Shown: one piece after another, positions 8,998 to 21,376 of the stretch
Layout of the letters: every line of letters begins with the position of its first letter
How positions within the stretch are numbered: position 1 is the first letter of the stretch
DNA from: Candidatus Multivoradales bacterium
GTDB lineage: Bacteria; Acidobacteriota; Thermoanaerobaculia; Multivoradales; JAHEKO01
Assembly: GCA_965223855.1 (NCBI GenBank)
Contig: CBDCXM010000002.1
Coordinates: forward strand, 160,001-224,000
Length of the DNA stretch: 64,000 nt
Reading direction: 5' to 3'
The notes under the pieces: generated by a model
The model's database searches: none
What the model was told of the DNA's origin: nothing
The model's input: the letters and a program-made list of their open reading frames with translations, nothing else
Translations under genes and position numbers: made by a program

Positions 8998-9218
8998 CCC
9001 GACTCTCCTCGGTGAGCGCCTTCGAGGGTCGCCAGAGCTTCGCGCTTGAGTCGATCCCGGTTCGGGCAGGTGGCACAGGTGATCGGCTCACCGTCGGAGT
9101 CGAGAACCGCGGGACCGCCGCAGGAACCTCGCAGGCAGCGGCCCGTGACGAGGACGCCGACCGACATCGCCAGCATGATGGCGGCAAAGAGTGCCAGGGT
9201 CAGGAGGAGGAGTGTCAT
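8994..9218 (-). CDS. nqrM: Na+-NQR maturation protein NqrM
   Basis: Single TM helix AMSVGV, LRGSCGG, CATC; directly downstream of apbE/nqrF. Confidence 0.88.
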   Translation of the reverse strand: MTLLLLTLALFAAIMLAMSVGVLVTGRCLRGSCGGPAVLDSDGEPITCATCPNRDRLKREALATLEGAHRGESG

Positions 9219-10339
9219 CGTTCTGTCTCTACGGGAAGTGGAAGCTCAGCGGATTCTAGCAATCGATCGAAGGACTCGGAGGTGCGCTCGACGAAGCCGT
9301 CGTCGGTCCGGTCCAGAAAGAGCACCGCCCACCCCTCGACTCGCGCGACTTCCAGCCCCTCTTCGCTTCCCAGGACCAGCATCGCCGTAGCGACGGCATC
9401 GGCGACGGCACATTCGTCATGAAGCACGGTCGTGGACGCGGTGCGATGGGTTGCCGGCCCTCCTGTCCGCGGGTCGAGGACGTGACTGATTCGACGTCCT
9501 TCCACTTCGCGATAGTTCCGATAGTCGCCGCTCGTCGCCATCGCAAGATCCCTCAAGGGAACGACTCGCTGAACGACACCGCGCGCCGCATCCGGACGCT
9601 CGATCCCGAGTGTCCACGCCGCGCCGTCCGGCCGGCGTCCCCCTGCCCGCACCTCCCCCCCGAGCTCGATCAGGTGCCACACGAATCCGAGCGCTTCCAG
9701 CGCCGCCGCCGCGCGGTCGACCGCGTACCCCTTGGCCACGCCCGAAAGGTCGATCTGGAGACCCGGGAGGGCCTTCTCGGCGGTTCCCGCCTCTCGATCG
9801 ATGCTCAGGTGAGCGTCACCCACCACCTCGCGCGCCGTCTCGAGAGTCGTCGGATCCGGATCTCCACGGTGCGCCGCGCTCCCGAATCCCCAGGCTGCGA
9901 CCAGCGGTGCGACCGTGACGTCGAAGGCTCCTCCCGTCCGCGCCGAGACATCAAGTGCGATCGAGAGGACGTCCAGGGTTGGAGGAGACATGGGCTGCGG
10001 CTCGGTCGACGGAGTGTCGTTGAAGCGAGTCACCTCGGACGCTCGATAGGTGGTCATCGCGTCATCCACCGCGCGGAAGGCTTGGTCGACGGCATCCCTC
10101 GCCGCCTCCAGCTCGGCCTCGGTGGCGGGCGTCCCCAACTTCACCGAGTAGGTGGTGCCCATCACCTCTCCCACGAACGAAGCGGGACCGGGCGCGGGAG
10201 CCGGCGCACAGCCGAACCCGAACCACCCAACCATCAACAGGCCGGTCGCCCGAAGGTGCCACACGAATCCGCGGGATGCGGAGGTGGGCCTCACTTCACC
10301 CCTCTTACGCAGGTGCCACACGAATGCGACGGCCTCCAC
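9215..10339 (-). CDS. apbE: FAD:protein FMN transferase ApbE (lipoprotein)
   Basis: MGTTYSV, GAFDVTV.PLV..WGF, DLSGVAKGYAVD, ELGGE, ATSGDYRNY, SHVLDPRTG, ADAVATA; lipobox FGC; GTG 10339 with GAGGA RBS (start uncertain). Confidence 0.93.
   Translation of the reverse strand: MEAVAFVWHLRKRGEVRPTSASRGFVWHLRATGLLMVGWFGFGCAPAPAPGPASFVGEVMGTTYSVKLGTPATEAELEAARDAVDQAFRAVDDAMTTYRASEVTRFNDTPSTEPQPMSPPTLDVLSIALDVSARTGGAFDVTVAPLVAAWGFGSAAHRGDPDPTTLETAREVVGDAHLSIDREAGTAEKALPGLQIDLSGVAKGYAVDRAAAALEALGFVWHLIELGGEVRAGGRRPDGAAWTLGIERPDAARGVVQRVVPLRDLAMATSGDYRNYREVEGRRISHVLDPRTGGPATHRTASTTVLHDECAVADAVATAMLVLGSEEGLEVARVEGWAVLFLDRTDDGFVERTSESFDRLLESAELPLPVETER
9672..9688 (+). repeat. REP-like motif AGGTGCCACACGAATCC, copy inside the apbE coding sequence
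   Basis: Exact 17-nt match to copies at 10254-10270 and 16550-16566. Confidence 0.85.
10254..10325 (+). repeat. Two copies of REP-like motif AGGTGCCACACGAAT (10254-10268, 10311-10325) at the 5' end of apbE
   Basis: Exact 15-nt matches to the motif flanking the transposase at 16488 and 16550. Confidence 0.9.
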
Positions 10340-10408
10340 CCATTCCTCGGCGCAGGAGTGCCAGGCGAATACGAGCGGAACGCGAGCTGCGACCGCTTCT
10401 CGGCAGGC

Positions 10409-11638
10409 TCAACCGCCGAAGTCGTCGAAGAGGATGTTCTCCGGCTCGACCCCGAGGCTGTCGAGCATCTCCCGGCACGCCTGGAGCATCAGCGGCGGGC
10501 CGCAGATGTAGTACTCGCAGTCTTCGGGCGCCGGGTGGTCCTTGAGGTAATTGTCGAGCAACACCTGGTGAATGAAGCCCGTATATCCACTCCAGTTGTC
10601 TTCCGGCATCGGATCGGAGAGAGCCAGGTGCCACTCGAAATTGTCGTTCGCGGCGGCGATCTCGTTGAAGTCGTCCTCGTAGAACGACTCGCGTCGGCTG
10701 CGCGCGCCATACCAGAAGGAGACCTTGCGATCGGTGCCGAGGCGCTTGAACTGGTCGAAGATGTGGGACCGCATCGGTGCCATGCCGGCCCCGCCGCCGA
10801 TGAAGATCATCTCGGCGTCGGTGTCCTTGGCGAAGAACTCTCCGAACGGCCCGGAGATCACCACTTCGTCCCCCGGCTTGAGGTTGAAGATATAGGAGGA
10901 CATCACGCCCGGCGGAGTGCCTTCCGGCGCCCTCGGCGGGGGAGAAGCGACGCGGACGTTGAGCATGATCATGCCGCGCTCTTCCGGGTAGTTGGCCATC
11001 GAGTAGGCCCGCTGCGCCGGCTCGTCCACCACTGACACGTAACGCCACAGATTGAACTTGTCCCAGTCCTCGCGGTACTTCTCGGCGACGTCGAAATCCT
11101 CGTACTTCGCGACGTGAGGCGGGCATTCGATCTGGATATAGCCGCCGGCCCGGAACGGCACCGACTCACCCTCCGGAAGCTCCAGAACCAGCTCCTTGAT
11201 GAAGGTGGCGACGTTGTCGTTCGACCGCACCTTGCAGGTCCACCGCTTGACGTCGAGGATCTCCGGCTCCATCTCGATCGACATGTCACCCTTGACCTTC
11301 ACCTGGCAAGAAAGACGGCAGCCTTCCCGCGCCTCACCGCGACTGATGTGCCCCGCCTCGGTCGGCAGCATCGCCCCGCCGCCATCGAGGACGTTGACCT
11401 TGCAGACTCCGCAGCTCCCCTTCCCGCCGCATGCGGACGGGACGAAGATCCCCTTGTCGGCCAGCGCACCGAGCAGCGTGCCGCCGGCGGAGACGGTCAT
11501 CGCCAGATCCGGATCACCGTTGACCTCGATCGTGACGTCTCCCGACTGCACGAGTCGGGCGCGCGCGGCGAGTACGATCGCCACCAGCGACAGGATGACC
11601 GCCGTGAACATCGCAACGCCGATGAGGATGGTCGACAT
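10409..11638 (-). CDS. nqrF: Na+-translocating NADH:quinone reductase subunit F
   Basis: [12 protein letters not shown] 2Fe-2S motif, [36 protein letters not shown]. Confidence 0.97.
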
Positions 11639-12252
11639 CAGAGCTGAATCCCGGAGAACGCCAGGAAGGCGATAGCGAGCAGGCCGGTCAGAAGGAAGGC
11701 CATTCCGAGGCCGCGCAGACCCTCCGGCACGTTGCTGTAGCGCAATCGCTCCCGGCACGAGGCGAGCGCCACGATGGCGAGCGCCCAGCCGACACCGGAG
11801 CCGAAGCCGAAGACGGCGCTCTCGGTGAGGTTGTACTCACGCTCCACCATGAAGAGCGACGCGCCGAGGATGGCGCAGTTGACGGCGATCAGCGGCAGGA
11901 AGACGCCGAGCGTGGTGTAGAGCGCCGGAGCGTAGCGATCGAGCGCCATCTCGACGATCTGGACCGCTGCGGCGATCGAGCCGATGTAGGAGAGCAGCCC
12001 GAGGAAGGAAAGGTCGTAGCCACCCAGAGACTCGTTGACCCAGGAGAGCGCTCCTTCCTTGAGGAGGTAGGAGTAGACGAGGTTGTTCAGCGGCACCGTG
12101 ACCGTCATGACGAAGATCACCGCCGCTCCGAGCCCGATCGCCGTCTCGACCTTCTTGGAACAGGCGAGGAAGGTGCACATGCCGAGGAAGAAGGCGAGCG
12201 CCAGATTCTCGACGAAGATCGCCTTGATGGCGAGGTTCAGGTACTGTTCCAT
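11638..12252 (-). CDS. nqrE: Na+-NQR subunit E
   Basis: [35 protein letters not shown]. Confidence 0.97.
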
Positions 12253-12875
12253 CAGTCCTCCTCCACCTGCTCGGGCTTCCAGGTCCTCAGCCCCCAGATC
12301 AGGAAGGCGATGAGGAAGAACGCCCCGGGCGAGAGCACCATCAGGCCGTTCGGGACGTACCAACCCCCCTCGGAGACCAGGGGCAGCACCGGATGGCCGT
12401 AGATCTTTCCGGAGCCCAGCAGCTCACGGAAGAAGCCGACGATCAGGAGTACGACGGCGTAGCCGAAGCCGTTGCCGAGGCCGTCGAGAAGACTCTTGCC
12501 CGGCGAGTTCTGCATCGCATATCCCTCGGCGCGCCCCATGATGATGCAGTTCGTGATGATGAGGCCGACGAAGACCGAGAGCTGCTTGGAGACGTCGAAG
12601 AGGAAAGCCTTGAGAACCTGGTCGGCGACGATCACGAACGAGGCGATGATCGTCAGCTGGACGATGATGCGGATGCTCGACGGGATGTGATTGCGCAGCA
12701 GGCTCACGGAGACGTTCGAGGCCGACAGCACGGCGATCACGGCGGCCGACATGACCACCGAGGTCTCGAGCTTGGTCGTTACGGCCAGCGCCGAACAGAT
12801 GCCCAGGACCTGAAGGGCGATCGGGTTGTTCGTGAAGATCGGATCGAGGACGATCTGCGAGTTCTTGTCGGCCAT
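12252..12875 (-). CDS. nqrD: Na+-NQR subunit D
   Basis: [36 protein letters not shown]. Confidence 0.97.
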
Positions 12876-13678
12876 CAGGCGGCGCTCCTCTCGGCGCTGG
12901 GACGATCGTCGTTGGCGAGGCGCAGCTTCTCGAGGTACGGGCCGAACCCATCGGGACCGAGCCAGAAGTCGAGCATGTTGGTGATCCCGCGGCTGGTGAT
13001 GGTCGCCCCGGAGAGGCCATCGACCTGGAGCGGCGCCTCTGAGGCCGGCGGCGCCAGCCCCTTGACCACCTCGAGGGCGGGTTGCCAGGAGTCGTCGAAC
13101 ACCTCCCTGCCGGGCCACAGCGCCTTCCATCTCGGGTTGTCGACTTCGCCTCCGAGCCCGGGCGTCTCCTTGTGCTCGTAGTAGGTGATGCCGACCACGG
13201 TGTCGGTGTCGTCATCGAGCGCCAGATAGCCGTAGAGCGTGCCCCACAGCCCGTAGCCCTCGATCGGCAGCACCACCTTGTCGAGGGCGCCGGAGTCGTC
13301 GAGGACCTTGTAGACGAGCGCCAGTTCGGGCACCCGGTTGACCCGAGCCGGATTGCTCTCGACCGCTCGCGAGCGGGCCGGGTCCTTCTTGGCTTTCTGC
13401 TGGTCGTAGGTCTGAGTGTCGCCTTCCGCCTCTTCGCCGGTGGCGAGGTCGACGAGCACCGCCTCGAGGCGTGCCGACTTGGCGGCGAGCTCGTCGCCTG
13501 CCGGCTTTTCGCCGGCGGCGATCAGTCCGGCCGCCTCGAGCACGTTGAGCTGCCGATCGAGCACCTTGTTGGCCTCCTGCTCTTCCTTGAGAGTGACGGC
13601 GGAGCTCGAGACCATCACCGCGCACAGCACGCAGAGGCCGGCGGAGAAGAGCAGGGTGTAGAGGACGCTATGCCGCAT
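12875..13678 (-). CDS. nqrC: Na+-NQR subunit C
   Basis: [31 protein letters not shown]-attachment motif. Confidence 0.96.
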
Positions 13679-14888
13679 ATCGGGCCTGTCGACGTTTGAT
13701 GTTCGCGCGGACGACGAAGTGGTCGATCGTCGAGGCGAATACGTTCATGAAAAGGATGGCGAGCATCATCCCCTCCGGATAGGCGGGGTTGAGCACCCGC
13801 ACGACGATCGCCATGACACCGACGAGGAAGCCGTAGATGTACTTGCCGGCGTTCGTGTGGGCCGCCGAGACGGGGTCGGTTGCCATGAAGACGGCGCCGA
13901 AGGCCCAGCCGCCGAGGACGATCTGCCAGTGGAACGGCACGTTGATCAGCAGGTTGGTCTCGGAGCCGACAGCATTGAGCAGGGCGGTCGTGGCGAAGGT
14001 GCCGATGACGAGCGACACCATGATGCGCCACGAGCCGATGCCGGAGAGCACCAGGATGGCGGCGCCGATGAGGCACGCGATGGCGGAGGTCTCTCCCATC
14101 GAGCCCGGGATGGTTCCGACGAGCGCGTCCTTCCAGGCCAGTCCCTTCTCGAGACCCGCCACGCCGTCCGTGGCGGCGATCGAGAGCCAGGTCGCGCCGC
14201 TGTAACCGTCGGGGCTCGTCTGGGCGGCGATCCACACCTTGTCTCCGGAGATCTCCGCAGGGTAGGCGAAGAACAGGAACGCGCGCGCCGTGAGTGCCGG
14301 GTTGAGGATGTTCATCCCGGTGCCTCCGAAGACCTCCTTGCCGACGATGACGCCGAAGAGGACGCCGAGGGCGACCTGCCAGAGAGGGATGGTCGGCGGC
14401 AGGGTCAACGGCAGCAGCATGCCGGTGACGAGGAAGCCCTCGTTGATCTCGTGCTTGCGGACGATGGAGAAGAGAGCTTCGGCGTTGCCTCCGACCACGA
14501 ACGTGACGAGAAGCACGGGAAGGTAGTAGAGAGCGCCGTGGGTGATGCAGGCGAGCATGTCGGCCGGGTTGAAGGCGAGACCGAGACGCTCCATCGCCGT
14601 CGTCTGCCAGGTGTCGAGTGGCAGTGCTCCGCCCGTGATCGCCCGATGGGCTTGGAGGCCGGTGTTGTACATCGCCATGAACATCGTCGGGATGAGCGCC
14701 ACGACGACGGTCATCATCATCCGCTTGAGATCGAGCGCGTCGCGGACGTGCGTCGAGCCCGACGTGACCGTCCCGGGGGTGTAGAGGAACGTGTCCGGGG
14801 CCTCGTATAGGGCATGGAACTTCTCGAGCTTGCCTCCGGGCTCGAAATGCTTCGACTGGCGATCGAGGAACCTACGCAGGAACTTCAT
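13668..14888 (-). CDS. nqrB: Na+-NQR subunit B
   Basis: [32 protein letters not shown] site, [19 protein letters not shown]. Confidence 0.97.
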
Positions 14889-16255
14889 CAGCCTTCCTTC
14901 TCGATCGTGGTCAGCATCGACCGCAGGTACTCGCCGTAGTTGTGCTTGCCGGGGCAGACGAAGGACAGCACTCCGAGGTCCTCCTCGTCGAGTTCGAGGA
15001 CGCCGAGTGTCTCGGCCTGCTCCAGGTCTCCGGCGGCGAGCGAGCGCAGCAGATAGGAGGGCGGGATGTCGAAGGGAAACACCTTCTCGTACATGCCGAT
15101 CGGGACGATGGCGCGGTCGGAGCCGTTCTTGGTGGTGGAGAAGGGGAACCTCCGGCCCGGCAGGAGCTTCGAGGCGAACACGTTGACGACGGAGAACTTG
15201 TCGGTGCCGGGCGTCAGCCAACCGAGGAACTCGCGCTCCCGACCCTCGCGCAGGACGGTCACCTGGTTGTGATGCCGGCCGAGGAAGCCGTGGATCTCGC
15301 CCATGGCCCTGCGTCCGTAGAGCGGTGAGCCGGAGATGACGCGGTTGTCACCCTCGACGAGCTCGCCGCGCACCAGATCGTCGAGGTGGGCTCCGATGCG
15401 GGTTCGAAGGAGTCGCGGCCGCTCGACCGCGGGCCCGGCCAGTGCGATCGTGCGCTGCACGTCGAGGTTGCCGGTCTCGAAAAGGTGCCCGATCGCCAGC
15501 ACTTCCTGGTAGCCGATCCACCAGACGGTGCGTTGGCGACTCGCGGGTGCAAGTTGGTGGATGTGGTAGCCGGCCGTGCCGGAGGGATGGGGGCCGGAGA
15601 ACTGCTCGTGCCGGAAGTCGCCCGCGGGCAGCGTCGGAGTGAATCCGGTGTGGGTGCAGACAAAGACCGGCCCGTCGGTCAACTTGCCGAGGGCGGTGAG
15701 GCCGCGCTCCAGGTCTCCTTCGCGACCGGCGATCACCTGTCGCGGATCGGGGGAAAGGGGGTGGGAGTCGGTGAGATTGACGAAGATCGCCGCGGCAGTG
15801 GAGTCGGGTTCGGGAACCCGGCTGAACGGCCGGCGCCGCAGGGCGACCCACTGCCCGGACTCGACCAGCAGTGCCCGAACCTGGTCACCGGTCATCGCGT
15901 TCGGATGCTGACCGGAGAAGGCGCGGAATCGACTGGCACCTCCCTTGCCGCCGCGCTCCGCCGCCGTGAGCTCGACGACGACCGACTGCAGTGCTCGCCG
16001 GTCGCCGCGGTGGACTCCGACCACCTTGCCGTCGGCCGGGGAGGTGTGGAGCACGCCGGGAGTCTTCTTGTCCTCGAACAGGACCTGCCCTCTTTGTACC
16101 GAGTCGCCGACGCCGACCTTCATCGTCGGCTTGAGGCCGACGAAGTCGTGGGCCAGGACGGCGACGCGGGCGACCTGGCGGGCATCCTCGACGATGGCTT
16201 CAGGGCTGCCCGTGATCGGGAGGTCGATCCCGGTACGCGTTCTGTGGTGGGCCAT
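14888..16255 (-). CDS. nqrA: Na+-NQR subunit A
   Basis: [35 protein letters not shown]...FVCPGK, IEKEG. Confidence 0.96.
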
Positions 16256-16309
16256 TCGTATCTGGTTCCAGTGCTGTGAGCCGGGTGGCTGAGAGGCGAT
16301 TCTGTCTGC

Positions 16310-16327
16310 TTGTGAAAAAAATCACAA
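16310..16327. promoter_or_regulatory. Palindromic operator TTGTGA-N6-TCACAA upstream of nqrA (Rex-like or CRP/FNR-like)
   Basis: TTGTGAAAAAAATCACAA, 55 nt upstream of the nqrA start, in an AT-rich patch; matches TGTGA-N6-TCACA and nearly matches TTGTGAA-N4-TTCACAA. Confidence 0.65.
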
Positions 16328-16487
16328 GCTCAATCACACATCCCGCTGACCGGGACTCGACGAAACGAGACGCGGCCGGACCGACGGTTTCCGGCGCAGC
16401 GGTTTGTGAATCCCCATTGTCCCCGACCGCCGAGATCGCCGTCAACACTCCGCCGCCGAGCGTTGCCCCGAGCAGGTGCAGTGGGGA

Positions 16488-17808
16488 AGGTGCCACACGA
16501 ATGTCCGCCGGCCGAGTAGGTGCGCCCGCAGAGTAGGTGCCCGCAGAGTAGGTGCCACACGAATCCAGACAACGAGGTTCTCATCCGCTGTGAGATCCGG
16601 GTGTGCGATGCCGTCTGGCTGGTGTGATGGCACGCCCGCTGCGATACCTCCCTTCAGAGGCTCTGGTAGAAGTTACCTGCCGCGTACTTCAGCGCAGATT
16701 CCTCCTTCGGCCGTCGCCGGCCCTCAACGCGATCGTCATAGGAGCCCTCGCTCGAGGGCAGGAGCGGTACGGGATGAGGGTCTGCGCCTTCATCTACCTC
16801 TCGAACCACTGCCACCTCCTGCTCTATCCGACCGACGGCAAGCAGCTTGCCGACTTCATGCGCTACGTGAACTCGAAGATTGCGCGAGAGGTCTGTCGGC
16901 TGCATGACTGGGGTGAGAAGGTGTGGGGCAGGCGCTATGTGGGCATCAGGGTGTCGGACACGAGGGTAGATCAGGTTCGCCGGCTCCGGTATCTGCTCTC
17001 GCAGGGCTGCAAGGAGGGGCTCGTCGCCTCTCCTCGGCATTGGCCCGGTGCGACGTCCACGAGAGCACTGATGCAGGACGAAGAGGTCGAAGGAGTCTGG
17101 ATCGACAGGACGTCTCAGTACCGTGCCAAAGGAGGGCGAGGAGCAGGGCCCGAAGCTCGGTTCACGACTCGCCATCGTCTGAAGCTCACGCCGCTGCCGT
17201 GCTGGGAAGGTACTCCGGACGCCGAATGGAGAGCAGAGGTGAGGAGGCTCGTCAAGGAGATCGAGGACGAGGCGCCGAGAAAGGTCCTGGGGAGGAGGGC
17301 GATCCTTCGACAGCATCCTCATGATCGTCCGAAAGGGCCTGCGTCATGGAGGCCCGCACCTCGGTTCCACGCCATCGAGCGGGAGGTCAGACAGTCTCTC
17401 GAGAACGCCTATCGGCTGGCGGTCATCGCCTACCGTGAGGCACGCGAGGAACTGCTTGAGGGGAGGGAGGCTCGCTTCCCATGCGGTTGCTTCCCTCCTG
17501 CCCTGAGTTTCGTTCGGATGCAGGTGTGACCGCAGTGTCTGACCGTCCTAGCGACGACAGCAGGATCGCCGGAACTCCGCGCTAGCTGGACGACCGGGAA
17601 GGTAGAGGCGAGGGCTTCACAGAGACCTGGCCCGTCGGCAGCTGCCTTCTGCTTCTCCGGCGCTACTTGGTGCTGTCGTCAGCCCATCGGAACGGGCGGT
17701 GGGCGCGCGAAGGCCGCGCCTTACGCTCCGCATGAAGAGTGGCTCGCGCCGGCGGACCTCCACCGGAGCCCTTGCTACCAGTCGTGGTCGGCAATCGTGT
17801 GGCACTTT
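16488..17808 (+). mobile_element. RAYT-like (HUH/Y1 tyrosine transposase) element with inverted REP-like ends
   Basis: Left side: AGGTGCCACACGAAT at 16488 and 16550, plus three GAGTAGGTGC iterations (16514, 16531, 16546). Right side: inverted AATCGTGTGGCACTTT at 17793-17808. Transposase ORF lies between them. Confidence 0.75.
16627..17529 (+). CDS. REP-associated tyrosine transposase-like protein (Y1_Tnp/HUH)
   Basis: MARPLR..., EVTCR...RFLLRP, LSNHCHLL (HUH), VWGRRY, YLLSQGCKEGLV.SP.HWPG; weaker GC3 bias than neighbouring genes. Confidence 0.85.
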   Translation: MARPLRYLPSEALVEVTCRVLQRRFLLRPSPALNAIVIGALARGQERYGMRVCAFIYLSNHCHLLLYPTDGKQLADFMRYVNSKIAREVCRLHDWGEKVWGRRYVGIRVSDTRVDQVRRLRYLLSQGCKEGLVASPRHWPGATSTRALMQDEEVEGVWIDRTSQYRAKGGRGAGPEARFTTRHRLKLTPLPCWEGTPDAEWRAEVRRLVKEIEDEAPRKVLGRRAILRQHPHDRPKGPASWRPAPRFHAIEREVRQSLENAYRLAVIAYREAREELLEGREARFPCGCFPPALSFVRMQV

Positions 17809-17817
17809 GTTTCTTCT

Positions 17818-19602
17818 CTACTGCGTCTTGTGCCGCGTTGCGACGCGTCGGCGCAGGGACTCGATGGAATCGTCTGGCACCGCGGTGATGAGCTGGCGGG
17901 TGTAGGGGTGTCGCGGGGCGGAGTAGATCCGCTCGGCGGCGCCGAACTCGACGAGGCGGCCGGCTCTCATGACGGCGATCATGTCGGAGGCGAAGCGGAC
18001 GACGGAGAGGTCGTGGCTGATGAAGAGGTAGGCGAGGTTGCGCTCCTCCTGGAGGTCCTTGAGGAGGTTGAGGACCTGGGCCTGGACGGAGACGTCGAGC
18101 GCCGAGACGCACTCGTCGCAGATGACGAGATCCGGATCGACGGAGAGCGCGCGGGCGATGGCGATGCGCTGCCGCTGCCCGCCGGAGAACTCGTGCGGGT
18201 AGCGTTCGAGGTGATCGGCCTCCAGCCCAACTTCGGCAAGCAGGGCGGCTGCTCGTTCTCGACGGTCGCTTCGGCTGTCACCGATTCCGTGGACCGCCAT
18301 CGGCTCCGTCAGCAGGGCGCCGACTCGCATCCTCGGGTTGAGCGAACCGTAGGGGTCCTGGAAGATCATCTGGAAGCGACGGCGGGATCTCCGAAGCACT
18401 TTTCCGCGCAACGTCGCCAGATCCACGCCGTCGAACATCACCGACCCGGCGGTCGGCTCGATCAGTCGCAGGACGGCTCGTCCGAGGGTCGTCTTGCCGC
18501 AACCCGACTCGCCGACGAGCCCGACCGTCTGGCCGCGGTAGATGTCGAGATCGACCGCATCGACCGCCCGGACCGGCGGCGAGCCGCCACGCAACCAGCT
18601 CTGCCGACCGGGATACTCCACCTCCAGGCCTCGGATCGAGAGCAGGGGAGTCTCGCCTTCTTCGACGAAGGTGGCTTCGCTGTCACCGCCTGAGTCGAAC
18701 CCGGGGTGGAGGCGCCGGGGCCGCCCGGCCGATTCGTAGGAGGCGAGGTCGAGCGCTCCACCGTCCCGCTCCGCCGTGAGGAAGTCGCCGACGGTCGGTA
18801 GCCGCCGGAAGGTCGTGTCGAGTCTCGGGCGGCAGGCGAGAAGCCCACGGGTGTAGGGATGCCGCGGCCGCTCGAAGAGTTCGAGCACCGGCGCCGTCTC
18901 GACCAGCTTGCCCTGGAAGAGCACCGCGACATCGTCCGCGATCTCGGCGATAACCCCCAGGTCGTGGGTGATGAAGAGCATCGCCATCCCGCGCTCGTCG
19001 CGCAGCCGGCGGAGCAGTTCGAGAATCTGAGCCTGCAGCGTCACATCGAGCGCGGTCGTCGGCTCGTCGGCGATCAGCAGCCTCGGCGACCCGGCGAGCG
19101 CCATCGCGATCATCACTCGCTGCTTCTGGCCGCCGGAGAGTTCATGCGGAAACGAGTGGTACCTCTCGGCCGGCCCCGGAAGGCCGACCTCCTCGAACAG
19201 TGTTACGGCCCTCTCGGCCGCCTCCCGCCGCGATGTGCGCTCGTGAAGACGGATCGTCTCGGCCACCTGTTGCCCGACCTTGTAGACCGGGTTGAGGGCG
19301 GCGCCCGGCTCCTGAAACACCATGGCAATCTCGGCGCCGCGGATCGGACGCAGCTCGCGCGGCGGAAGCCTCACCAGGTCGCGACCGAGCCAGGAGACGC
19401 TGCCGGCGGTGAGACGGGCGTTGTCCGGAAGCAGTCCGAGCACCGACAGAGAAGTCACGGATTTCCCGGAACCGGACTCGCCGACCAGCCCGAGCGTGCG
19501 TCCGGGCTCGATCGAGAAGCTGACGTCGTCGACGGCGATCGCCGTGCCGCCGAACTCGGTTCTGAGTCCGTCGACTTCGAGCAGCGGCTTGATCTCTGTC
19601 AT
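17818..19602 (-). CDS. Peptide/dipeptide ABC transporter ATP-binding protein (two NBDs)
   Basis: Two [16 protein letters not shown] Walker A motifs, ELSGGQ/EFSGGQ, HPYT motifs. Confidence 0.95.
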
Positions 19603-19738
19603 GGAAGAGGTCTCGAACCCGGGAGCCGTGCCGGTCGCTGACACCGGCGCCTCACGATCGCGAAACTCTAGCAGCGCCTCGCGGACATGCTCGCCTCCTC
19701 GTCTATGATCGGCACGCATCAGCCGAAAGGAGTCGCCC

Positions 19739-21376
19739 TTGACAGCCATCCGCCCCATCACCGAAGTCGCTCGCGACCTCGGAATCGCCGACGATCACCT
19801 CGTCCCGTACGGTAGCGACAAGGCAAAGGTGCGTCTCGCCGCCCTCGAGGGCCGCCCTCAGGGACGACTCGTCCTAGTCTCGGCCATCACGCCGACGAGC
19901 GCAGGCGAGGGCAAGACGACGACCTCGATCGGCCTCGCGCAGGGGCTGGCGAAGATCGGAAAGAAGGTCTGCCTGGCTCTGCGCGAGCCGTCGCTCGGCC
20001 CGACCTTCGGCAAGAAGGGAGGCGCCACCGGCGGTGGCCGTTCGATCGTCGTCCCTACGGTCGACATCAACCTTCACTTCACCGGCGACTTTCACGCGAT
20101 CACGAGCGCCAACAACCTGCTGTCGGCGATTGTCGACAACCACATCTACCATCGCAAGGAGCCCGATCTCGACCCGCGGCGGGTGCTGTGGCGGCGAGTG
20201 ATCGACCTCAACGACCGGGCGCTGCGCCACACCGTGGTCGGCCTCGGCGGGAAGCTCCAGGGGGTACCGCGCGAGACCGGGTTCGACATCACCCCGGCTT
20301 CCGAGATCATGGCGATTCTCTGTCTGGCGCAGGACGAGGACGACCTGCGACGACGCCTCGGCAAGATTCTCGTCGGCTTCACCTACCAGGAGGAGCCGGT
20401 CCTTGCGCGAGATCTCGGTGCCGTCGGGGCGCTGATGGTGCTGCTGCGCGACGCGATCCTGCCCAACCTCGTGCAGTCGATCGAGGGAGTTCCGACGTTC
20501 ATCCACGGCGGGCCGTTCGCGAATATCGCCCACGGCTGCAACTCGGTGCTGGCTACGCGGATGGCGCTCGCACACTCCGACTGGGCGATCACGGAGGCTG
20601 GTTTCGGCTTCGACCTCGGAGCAGAGAAGTTCTTCGACATCAAGTGCCAGTCGGCCGGCCTCGAGACCGCCGCCGTCGTGCTGGTCGCTACGGTGAGAGC
20701 CCTCAAGCGCCACGGCGGCGTGCCGGCCAGACGTCTCGGAGAGGACAATCCTGACGCCGTCGCCAGGGGGCTGCCGAATCTTCACAAGCACGTGCAGAAC
20801 ATCCGCGCCTTCGGCCAGATCCCGGTCGTCGCTCTCAACCGGTTTCATACCGACAGCTCGGAGGAGATCTCGGCGGTCGAGAGCGCTTGTGCCGAGGCGG
20901 GGGTGCCGTTCGCCGTCTCGAACCACTTCGCCGAGGGTGGCGACGGCGCCACCGAGCTCGCCCGCACGCTGGTCGAGCATGCCGAGACTCAGTCGTCCCG
21001 CTTCACGCCGCTCTACGACTGGTCCGAGCCAGTGCGCGACAAGATCGACAAGGTCGCCCGCACCATGTACGGCGCCCGCGAGGTGGTGTACTCCAAGCTC
21101 GCGGACAAGGATCTGGCGCGGCTCGAGGATCTCGGCTACGGCGGCCTGCCGGTGTGCATCGCCAAGGCGCCCACGTCGCTCACCGACGACCCGCGCATCG
21201 CCGGTCGTCCCGAGGACTTCGCCGTCACCGTTCGTTCGTTCGAGCTCTCGGCGGGTGCCGGTTTCCTGATCCCCCTTCTCGGTGACGTCATGAGGATGCC
21301 AGGCCTGCCGCGTGAGCCGCAGGCCGAGTCGATGGATCTCGTCGATGGGGAGATTCAGGGTCTGATGGGAGCGTGA
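19739..21376 (+). CDS. fhs: Formate--tetrahydrofolate ligase
   Basis: TPTSAGEGKTT, LREPSLGP, KGGATGGG, NLHFTGD, HGGPFANIAHGCNS, GAEKFFDIKC, MRMPGLP; TTG start with AAAGGAG RBS. Confidence 0.97.
   Translation: MTAIRPITEVARDLGIADDHLVPYGSDKAKVRLAALEGRPQGRLVLVSAITPTSAGEGKTTTSIGLAQGLAKIGKKVCLALREPSLGPTFGKKGGATGGGRSIVVPTVDINLHFTGDFHAITSANNLLSAIVDNHIYHRKEPDLDPRRVLWRRVIDLNDRALRHTVVGLGGKLQGVPRETGFDITPASEIMAILCLAQDEDDLRRRLGKILVGFTYQEEPVLARDLGAVGALMVLLRDAILPNLVQSIEGVPTFIHGGPFANIAHGCNSVLATRMALAHSDWAITEAGFGFDLGAEKFFDIKCQSAGLETAAVVLVATVRALKRHGGVPARRLGEDNPDAVARGLPNLHKHVQNIRAFGQIPVVALNRFHTDSSEEISAVESACAEAGVPFAVSNHFAEGGDGATELARTLVEHAETQSSRFTPLYDWSEPVRDKIDKVARTMYGAREVVYSKLADKDLARLEDLGYGGLPVCIAKAPTSLTDDPRIAGRPEDFAVTVRSFELSAGAGFLIPLLGDVMRMPGLPREPQAESMDLVDGEIQGLMGA

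Follow-up and report, generated by a model that had tools for sequence, protein, structure and literature searches.

How a short sequence that marks the ends of a mobile element comes to stand, in frame and in several copies, within the gene of a conserved enzyme is the question raised by a 64,000-nucleotide stretch of the genome of a Candidatus Multivoradales bacterium (GenBank assembly GCA_965223855.1, contig CBDCXM010000002.1, positions 160,001 to 224,000), referred to here as the window. The gene is apbE, which encodes a FAD:protein FMN transferase, and the element carries a gene for a Y1/HUH transposase in the same locus. The initial annotation of the window had reported one motif at 9672, 10254 and 10311 in a single frame of the apbE open reading frame (ORF). 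All three are exact copies, and the ORF 9215-10339 (minus strand) does read each of them as F-V-W-H-L. The explanation that we favour, with about even confidence, is that the in-gene copies arise by a replacement that preserves length and is templated by the end of the element, likely carried out by the transposase, and that the same process acts elsewhere in the element family.

The 15-mer AGGTGCCACACGAAT is found exactly at 9672, 10254, 10311, 16488 and 16550 of the window, all on the plus strand, and copies with two mismatches are found at 10626 (plus) and 17793 (minus). These 7 matches compare with 0.08 expected, and none of 100 shuffles got to 7. The conserved unit is 17 nt long, AGGTGCCACACGAATCC. 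The whole genome holding the window (G000; 4,520,844 bp in 9 contigs, 68% GC, 92% complete) has 6 exact copies of the 15-mer, five of which lie in the 7-kb nqr-apbE locus while the sixth lies on contig C9, 311 nt past the 3' end of a paralogous transposase gene. Identity between copies ends after 15-18 nt (18 nt in common for the apbE core copy and the 10254 copy) and the surrounding sequence is unique in G000. Outside these 15-18-nt units, neither the spacers nor the flanks of the element recur in the genome, so the units do not stem from a larger repeat that could still be recognised. None of the four same-genus genomes has the exact 14-mer, which occurs once each in 3 of 40 relatives.

The transposase gene (16627..17529, plus strand) encodes 300 aa, its ORF being open from GTG 16603. 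The ORF 16603-17529 matches the Pfam family PF01797 (Y1_Tnp) with 27.0 bits against a cutoff of 23, and the NCBIfam equivalog REP_Tyr_transpos with 44.5 bits, below the cutoff of 80. The H-C-H of the transposase aligns to the H-V-H, and its rYLlsQ to the kYIesQ, of ISDra2 TnpA (2XM3), in an alignment that is weak (E 0.018); the Tyr of rYLlsQ is presumably the catalytic one. A Pfam search of the 308-aa ORF (E <= 0.001) gave only Y1_Tnp and no C-terminal helix-turn-helix (Bac_DnaA_C, HTH_23, HTH_28), the C-terminal half having had no structure or profile search. G000 holds 19 full-length copies of this gene and one split copy, 53-70% identical to the window gene, and homologues are present in 34 of the 41 related genomes searched (G000 included); this tally takes in the unpublished G005, on which no claim rests. 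None of the approximately 20 copies in the 4.5-Mb genome is identical to another. A cluster of 4-5 copies and fragments is situated at C9:1063-1078 kb. The loci C4:8017-8896 and C9:92914-93795 have near-identical flanks, the C4 copy being found as two tblastn pieces, and they represent either a recent duplication with a frameshift or assembly redundancy.

The similarity between the window gene and its five closest paralogues starts on the left at RRGTGCCAC[AT]CGAATCC and stops on the right at an inverted copy of the same sequence, which identifies the motif as a terminal inverted repeat (TIR). Inverted ends of 15-17 nt flank the window gene and most of the paralogues, and the alignments diverge outside these ends. 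In the window the left end is a dimer (16488..16566, plus strand, comprising 16488-16502 and 16550-16566) with tandem partial copies of a flank joined to AGTAGGTGC between its units. The right end, AAGTGCCACACGATT, is inverted (17793..17807, minus strand) and lies 10 nt past the stop codon of an ABC ATPase gene. The motif is thus the 17-nt TIR of a TIRYT-type Y1/HUH transposase element, which is of a type already known, though little studied. The initial annotation had described the transposase as similar to the transposases associated with repetitive extragenic palindromic (REP) sequences, called RAYTs. The HUH family membership stands; a classical RAYT with REPs gives way to the TIRYT/TIRtron type with a non-palindromic TIR. 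The tetranucleotide GTAG, which stands 5' in the imperfect palindromes of REPs, directly abuts only the 16550 copy and is missing at 4 of the 5 local copies. On reading, GGTGCCAC matches the published TIRYT consensus GGGGWSAS at 6 of 8 positions and the GGTGTCAC variant at 7 of 8. A hairpin or REP structure for the motif has been rejected on the basis of fold prediction, which gave no significant DNA fold in six contexts (z -0.77 to +1.58). A sigma-54 promoter, to which the TGGCAC in the motif could belong, has also been rejected on reading, as no TTGC-like -12 element stands at N5 in any of the five copies. Rfam (9000-18500, E <= 0.1) gave no match to a regulatory RNA.

The association of the motif with the transposase family, also proposed in the initial annotation, extends to the whole genome. 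A regular expression for the family has 97 matches in G000 against 2 for the reversed control, and arrays of TIRs are present, for example at C9:1978284-1978684. All 6 exact copies of the 15-mer lie within 7 kb of a TIRYT family gene. Copies with up to two mismatches to the ends of a gene's own element number 22 within 0.7-10 kb of 17 genes as against 416 elsewhere, that is, they are about 12 times denser near the genes. Many ends show on their outer side 2-3 tandem copies of a 7-9-nt flank plus the outer half-end AGGTGCC, with a period of 12-17 nt, as exemplified by window positions 16503-16549, C9:526659 and C9:3183492. This "stutter" is also seen in G003 (L074-L078), G020 (L032) and G032 (L041). 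Counted as a 7-nt flank plus the outer 6 nt, it is found upstream of 18 of 79 family copies in G000 and at only 1 of 79 control probes. The stutter suggests breakage and rejoining inside the end sequence, near the point between AGGTGCC and the following A.

The copy in the core of ApbE (AGGTGCCACACGAATCC, 9672..9688, plus strand) is an exact 17-mer, read on the coding minus strand as G-F-V-W-H-L. The protein matches Pfam PF02424 with 263.7 bits and the NCBIfam equivalog with 229.8 bits, below the cutoff of 498, and it is colinear with the solved ApbE of Vibrio cholerae (6NXI; E 2.8e-69, residues 2-303). The block GFVWHLIELGGE aligns to GIENYMVEIGGE of 6NXI with no gap, next to the E-x-GGE motif of ApbE. 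At this site 19 orthologues have pentapeptides such as LADYM, HRNYM, VTSYM and FDRYM; none of them has an indel within the pentapeptide, and their DNA matches the motif at 3-8 of 15 positions. Among 120 sequences (this ApbE and 119 homologues) position 1 is F in 18, position 2 is V in 11, position 4 is H in 18 and position 5 is L in 48, and this ApbE alone has W at position 3; a one-residue insertion occurs in one homologue. As there is no indel and as F, V, H and L are each present in homologues, the copy represents a replacement of the same length that is probably tolerated by the protein. The substitution without an indel that the initial annotation had suspected is therefore confirmed, and F-V-W-H-L is not shared by relatives. 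It is the sole apbE match in G000. Logan contigs from 4 runs of one study, the source sample possibly among them, show 0 differences over 9200-10442 or parts of it, and hence no variant at the apbE site; rare alleles are not addressed by contigs.

The two upstream copies are of a different nature. The gene (9215..10294, minus strand) likely starts at GTG 10294-10292 or GTG 10264-10262, with a lipobox Cys codon at 10210-10208. It lies directly downstream of nqrF in the nqr operon, an order shared by 18 of the 19 loci examined in relatives. The start of apbE coincides with the nqrF stop, or is a few bases from it at most, in all four same-genus relatives and several others, and in G000 a distance of 114 nt separates the nqrF stop (10411-10409) from GTG 10294. 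This enlarged spacer holds three units of the TIR family, all on the plus strand. The unit at 10254..10270 (17/17) overlaps the apbE 5' end, as start codon or as part of the n-region of the signal peptide. The unit at 10311..10325 (15/15; 16/17) stands upstream of the Shine-Dalgarno-like AAGAGGGG, and the one at 10356..10370 belongs to another variant, GAGTGCCAGGCGAAT. ApbE orthologues are lipoproteins with short signal peptides, which together with the start codons available in the spacer indicates that the two "N-terminal" copies are solo TIR units. The initial annotation had considered them coding only if GTG 10339 is used. Translation from GTG 10294-10292, which follows AAGAGGGG at a distance of 4 nt, would include the 10254 copy and leave out the 10311 copy, while GTG 10264-10262 falls inside the 10254 copy itself. 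Judged from these start sites, at most one upstream copy would be translated, and then as a new n-region of ApbE rather than as codons overwritten in an old one. The earlier picture of codons written into an existing ApbE thus does not apply to these copies, which are ordinary solo units in an enlarged spacer.

End copies have also been identified inside other genes, their coding status being judged case by case from orthologues and Pfam. A gene of the cyclase family (C9:2631922-2633610; L056 420-2111) encodes 563 aa with two tandem Pfam Cyclase domains and has 72-81% identity in many relatives. At C9:2632495 it carries GAG GTG CCA CTC GAA TCC (EVPLES), which is 17/17 to an end variant also found as a solo unit with typical stutter at C9:1992626. 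The copy sits in a conserved (D/E)(L/V)PL motif of the second domain. The site in 14 relatives reads GAG GTG CCG CTC GAC TAC or close to it, matching at 10-14 of 17 positions, with "DY" in 10 of the 14 and with no indel. G000 differs in three codons, with CCA for CCG (synonymous), GAA for GAC and TCC for TAC, and each change brings the site closer to the TIR. A gene with a HATPase_c_3 domain (C3:159117; L042 9118-9132) has an exact copy of the commonest end variant, AGGTGCCAGGTGAAT, read as K-V-P-G-E-W. This copy shares its orientation with the left end of a TIRYT gene and lies 5.6 kb upstream of it. A search of 120 other genomes of the order gave no orthologue of the HATPase_c_3 gene. Four homologues were found, of which the 86%-identical one has the same peptide; compared with homologues of 33-37% identity the gene has one extra residue at the copy.

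The nqrA gene of the window contains a near-copy, AGGTGCCAGTCGATTCC (15925..15941, minus strand), read as G-G-A-S-R-F and 15/17 to the right-end TIR consensus. It fits every fixed position of the pattern AGGTGCCNNNNGAWTCC, which has 9 matches in the genome, 4 of them in the nqr-apbE locus, and 0 for the reversed control. The site matches at 4-10 of 17 in 9 relatives and has no indel in three same-genus relatives. Several codons of the near-copy end in A or T (GGA, GGT, AGT, CGA).

The pattern recurs in G032, a 3-contig genome from another family of the same order, for which 10 of 25 pattern matches were fetched and two followed up. An Fe-S oxidoreductase gene 2 kb from a TIRYT gene reads R-I-A-W-H-L and is 17/17 to the main end variant of G032. 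Its 10 orthologues match at 6-10 of 17, with no gap nearby in 8 of the 10. The gene for a YfhO-like membrane protein also reads R-I-A-W-H-L at 17/17. An 80%-identical relative has P-R-I-G-W-R-R there, 12/17 and with no indel. Among the differences is AGA for CGG, a synonymous codon that differs by two bases, in a gene whose G+C content at third codon positions (GC3) is 0.95. Three matches in G003 have been rejected as in-gene copies, since they are the left ends of elements.

The constant reading F-V-W-H-L reported initially holds at apbE and fails beyond it, as in-gene copies elsewhere use different frames and the opposite strand (EVPLES, KVPGEW, GGASRF). The proposal that the enzyme overwrites look-alike sites without an indel is upheld as a pattern by the recurrence of length-preserving in-gene copies (from 14/17 to 17/17 in the cyclase gene and from 12/17 to 17/17 in the G032 membrane protein), whereas the enzyme as the writer is what we infer. 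Neither of the two outcomes that the initial annotation had named as refuting its proposal was observed. Look-alikes of 12-14/17 are present in relatives at two of the five sites. Perfect 17-mers are expected approximately 0.01 times genome-wide for about 25 end variants (own arithmetic: 4^-17, 9 Mb on both strands). G000 has three perfect in-gene copies (apbE, cyclase, HATPase_c_3), each 4.5-7 kb from a TIRYT gene, a zone that makes up about 6-7% of the genome.

The following course of events would account for these observations. Solo copies of the end may have spread near the element, three of them into the nqrF-apbE spacer, where they would now supply the apbE 5' end, and one unit would have replaced 17 nt in the ApbE core by templating from the end sequence and not by insertion. 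Sites that are often natural look-alikes and usually a few kb from a TIRYT gene would thus be turned into perfect end copies, and selection would retain only the versions tolerated by the protein. The most likely agent is the transposase, which may recognise single-stranded DNA resembling an end and cut within or beside it; strand exchange with a true end, or repair primed from a true end, could follow the cut. The preference for TIRYT neighbourhoods and the stutter point to the transposase. In a more general form TIRYT transposases would be natural short-patch DNA writers, making fixed cuts in end-like single-stranded DNA and swapping in the canonical end, so that 5-6 codons are overwritten with no indel or target duplication; this we put forward tentatively, as possible but somewhat doubtful.

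Host replication or repair might instead have done the writing without a transposase, by a template switch of a nascent strand, through microhomology of a few bases, to a nearby end copy of which about 15-18 nt are copied before the strand goes back, or by short-patch ectopic conversion. We consider this fairly unlikely, and the evidence is divided. The extent of identity of the apbE copy to the others, which stops after 15-18 nt, is as such a switch would leave it, and the nearest copy lies only 582 bp from the core copy on the same strand. The core copy moreover agrees with the 10254 copy in CGG on the GAATCC side and with the 10311 copy in one further base on the AGGTG side; a conserved GC-TGG core is common to the G032 targets and the end sequence, and in-gene copies lie near clusters of end sequences. 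However, the identical 17-mer of the cyclase copy is 640 kb away, and for the G032 membrane protein gene the closest TIRYT gene listed on the contig is at a distance of about 366 kb; classical template switching works from inverted repeats that lie within tens to hundreds of bp. A generic process would also write many nearby sequences, and the perfect in-gene copies found are all end sequences (other repeats were not examined). Gradual drift toward the motif by point mutation under bias or selection, for instance if end-like sites to which the TIRYT protein or some host factor binds are favoured, much as DNA uptake sequences build up in coding regions, is less probable still and would be unlikely. 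Intermediates do exist, in nqrA and the ABC gene (15/17) and in a GT4 gene (16/17), with mismatches where the protein needs a given residue such as the Ser of GG.SRF, and natural look-alikes pre-exist, so that the cyclase gene needed only 3 changes. Against drift, ApbE and the G032 oxidoreductase require at least 7 specific changes relative to every relative, the exact 17/17 matches include third positions that go against the GC3 bias (CCA, GAA, AGA), the in-gene sites have no known function, and the units number only about 80-97 per genome, far below uptake sequences.

A classical insertion of an intragenic repeat (REP or Rickettsia palindromic element), followed by a deletion restoring the length, appears very improbable, though intragenic REPs are documented (PMC3733652, in the part available) and the HATPase_c_3 gene has its extra residue at the copy. 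The net change in length is zero in apbE, cyclase, nqrA and the two G032 genes, and insertion cannot explain the cyclase and YfhO-like sites, where 12-14 of 17 positions are already in place in relatives. Chance resemblance or an assembly artefact is hardly credible. High-GC genomes are rich in partial look-alikes and G000 is an assembly of 9 contigs at 92% completeness, but the excess of window matches over expectation, reversed-pattern controls of 0-2, the agreement of contigs from 4 runs (one study, possibly the source sample) and the recurrence in the 3-contig G032 of another family all speak against it. Length-preserving replacement templated by the element end, with the transposase as its likely agent, is the reading that we prefer, and several observations weigh against it. 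The nearest relative of this ApbE, none above it being found among 8000 candidates scored, is only 60% identical, so neither the ancestral sequence nor the age of the event can be deduced. As the sites were found by a search for end-like sequence, the lower similarity of the relatives is partly an effect of ascertainment. The 3-4 differences in 17 nt at the cyclase site amount to ordinary divergence, in which only the direction is odd; its distant donor is noted above, and the TIRYT gene closest to it carries a different end variant. The GT4 site is within chance (about 0.7 expected genome-wide, own arithmetic). Examination of 10 regions of G040 gave no convincing in-gene copy, and the 2 strict-pattern in-gene matches of G002 do not exceed chance, their variants having no further copy among the pattern matches. 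Finally, a look-alike in nqrF (13/15), 300 nt from the spacer units, stays unconverted.

This nqrF look-alike (10626..10640, plus strand) reads F-E-W-H-L. Of 19 loci in relatives, 13 carry it at the corresponding place with 2 or 3 mismatches, and it was therefore not written here. Another look-alike, CGGTGCCAGACGATTCC (A-V-P-D-D-S; 17866..17882, minus strand), in the 3' end of the ABC ATPase gene matches the TIR at 15/17 in the window and at 10-13/17 in same-genus relatives. Both are conserved protein motifs beside the element whose DNA naturally resembles its end, and both are present in relatives without this end variant; the element may choose sites near natural look-alikes. The ABC ATPase gene (17818-19761) flanks the element. 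In three same-genus relatives this gene lies about 200 nt upstream of nqrA, and in G000 the element of about 1.3 kb stands between them, an arrangement that, going by these loci, is probably confined to this lineage.

Upstream in the operon relative to apbE are the nqrF-like gene (10409..11758, minus strand; Fer2, FAD_binding_6 and NAD_binding_1 domains) and nqrA (14888..16255, minus strand; NQRA_N, NQRA_2nd and NQRA_SLBB domains). A palindrome of CRP/FNR type, TGTGA-N6-TCACA, occurs at 16311-16326, 56 nt upstream of nqrA, as the sole match in the window (0.01 expected), and several relatives have a similar cttgtga-N6-tcacaag box upstream of nqrA. As the palindrome is kept in G000 and relatives, the native promoter region of nqrA looks intact, with the TIR dimer beyond it. 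The GC3 of apbE is 0.75, compared with 0.84 for nqrF, 0.86 for nqrA and 0.79 for the ORF 13668-15221.

Length-preserving in-gene copies are supported, by five sites in two genomes, as a behaviour that is new for TIRYT elements as far as has been found. A search of the literature gave no report of such repeats replacing sequence of equal length; the supplementary table of PMC3733652 on intragenic REPs, which the search did not cover, may hold cases. Perfect copies at places where relatives hold look-alikes of 12-14/17 at the same length offer a testable model in which look-alikes are converted rather than sequences inserted. They would also represent a mutational class that is easily missed, in which blocks of 5-6 residues are replaced at once in conserved enzymes (ApbE, cyclase, NqrA) whose genes remain whole. 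If the process is enzyme-dependent, the transposase is a candidate for a small sequence-directed tool for DNA writing. Should TIRYT transposases indeed be short-patch writers, this would explain the spread and uniformity of end families, and perhaps of REPs, and would provide a source of block-wise protein change.

Several known systems bear comparison with these observations. DNA uptake sequences arise by uptake bias and homologous recombination and number thousands per genome. They resemble the present copies as short motifs inside genes, without indels, in tolerated frames and at less constrained positions, whereas the copies described here are few in number, are clustered around transposase genes and represent the ends of a mobile element. 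Template-switch (quasi-palindrome) mutagenesis likewise gives clustered, templated multi-base substitutions with length unchanged. Its template can be any inverted repeat close by, whereas the template here is invariably the end of a single element family and in some cases has no identical copy in the vicinity. With the TnpA of IS200/IS605 elements (ISDra2, PDB 2XM3) the window transposase shares the HUH and Tyr core in the weak but colinear alignment described above (E 0.018). IS200/IS605 elements have subterminal hairpins, no inverted repeats and a tetra- or pentanucleotide target, and the window transposase has an extra C-terminal half of about 150 residues.

RAYTs, for which cleavage and rejoining have been demonstrated in vitro, belong to the same enzyme superfamily. 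To our knowledge the dispersal of REP- and TIR-type repeats has been without an explanation since RAYTs were described. As in REP/RAYT systems (REPtrons, REPINs), a short flanking repeat lies mostly outside genes, often between co-directional genes. Unlike REPs the present units are non-palindromic, number tens and not hundreds and mostly lack GTAG, and G000 has many gene copies, compared with the 1.3-1.8 copies per replicon given for RAYT groups in the available part of PMC5581495. Intragenic REPs and Rickettsia palindromic elements are likewise repeats of mobile families that stand in frame within functional genes. According to the available part of PMC3733652, intragenic REPs are inserts that add residues, 20 to 30 amino acids for dimers or grouped repeats, whereas here the length is unchanged and existing codons are replaced.

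The closest counterpart is the TIRYT/TIRtron class of Di Nocera et al. 2013 (PMC3733652), which is subclass 2.1 of Quentin et al. 2018 (PMC6006769). The class is described as tyrosine transposases flanked by inverted repeats, the repeat also occurring singly, as dimers and in clusters, and it includes a distinct group from Acidobacteria. The present family differs in that its ends match the consensus GGGGWSAS of PMC3733652 at no more than 6-7 of 8 positions, Pfam finds no C-terminal helix-turn-helix, a domain that marks subclass 2.1, and the genome holds about 20 diverged genes. It differs also in its length-preserving in-gene copies and its flank-plus-half-end stutter, neither of which features in the available portion of the published account. 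It agrees with the class in having a Y1/HUH gene bounded by TIRs and not hairpins, in the occurrence of the end as singles, dimers and clusters, and in the published Acidobacteria group, the homologues of ApbE found here carrying source names of Acidobacteriota type.

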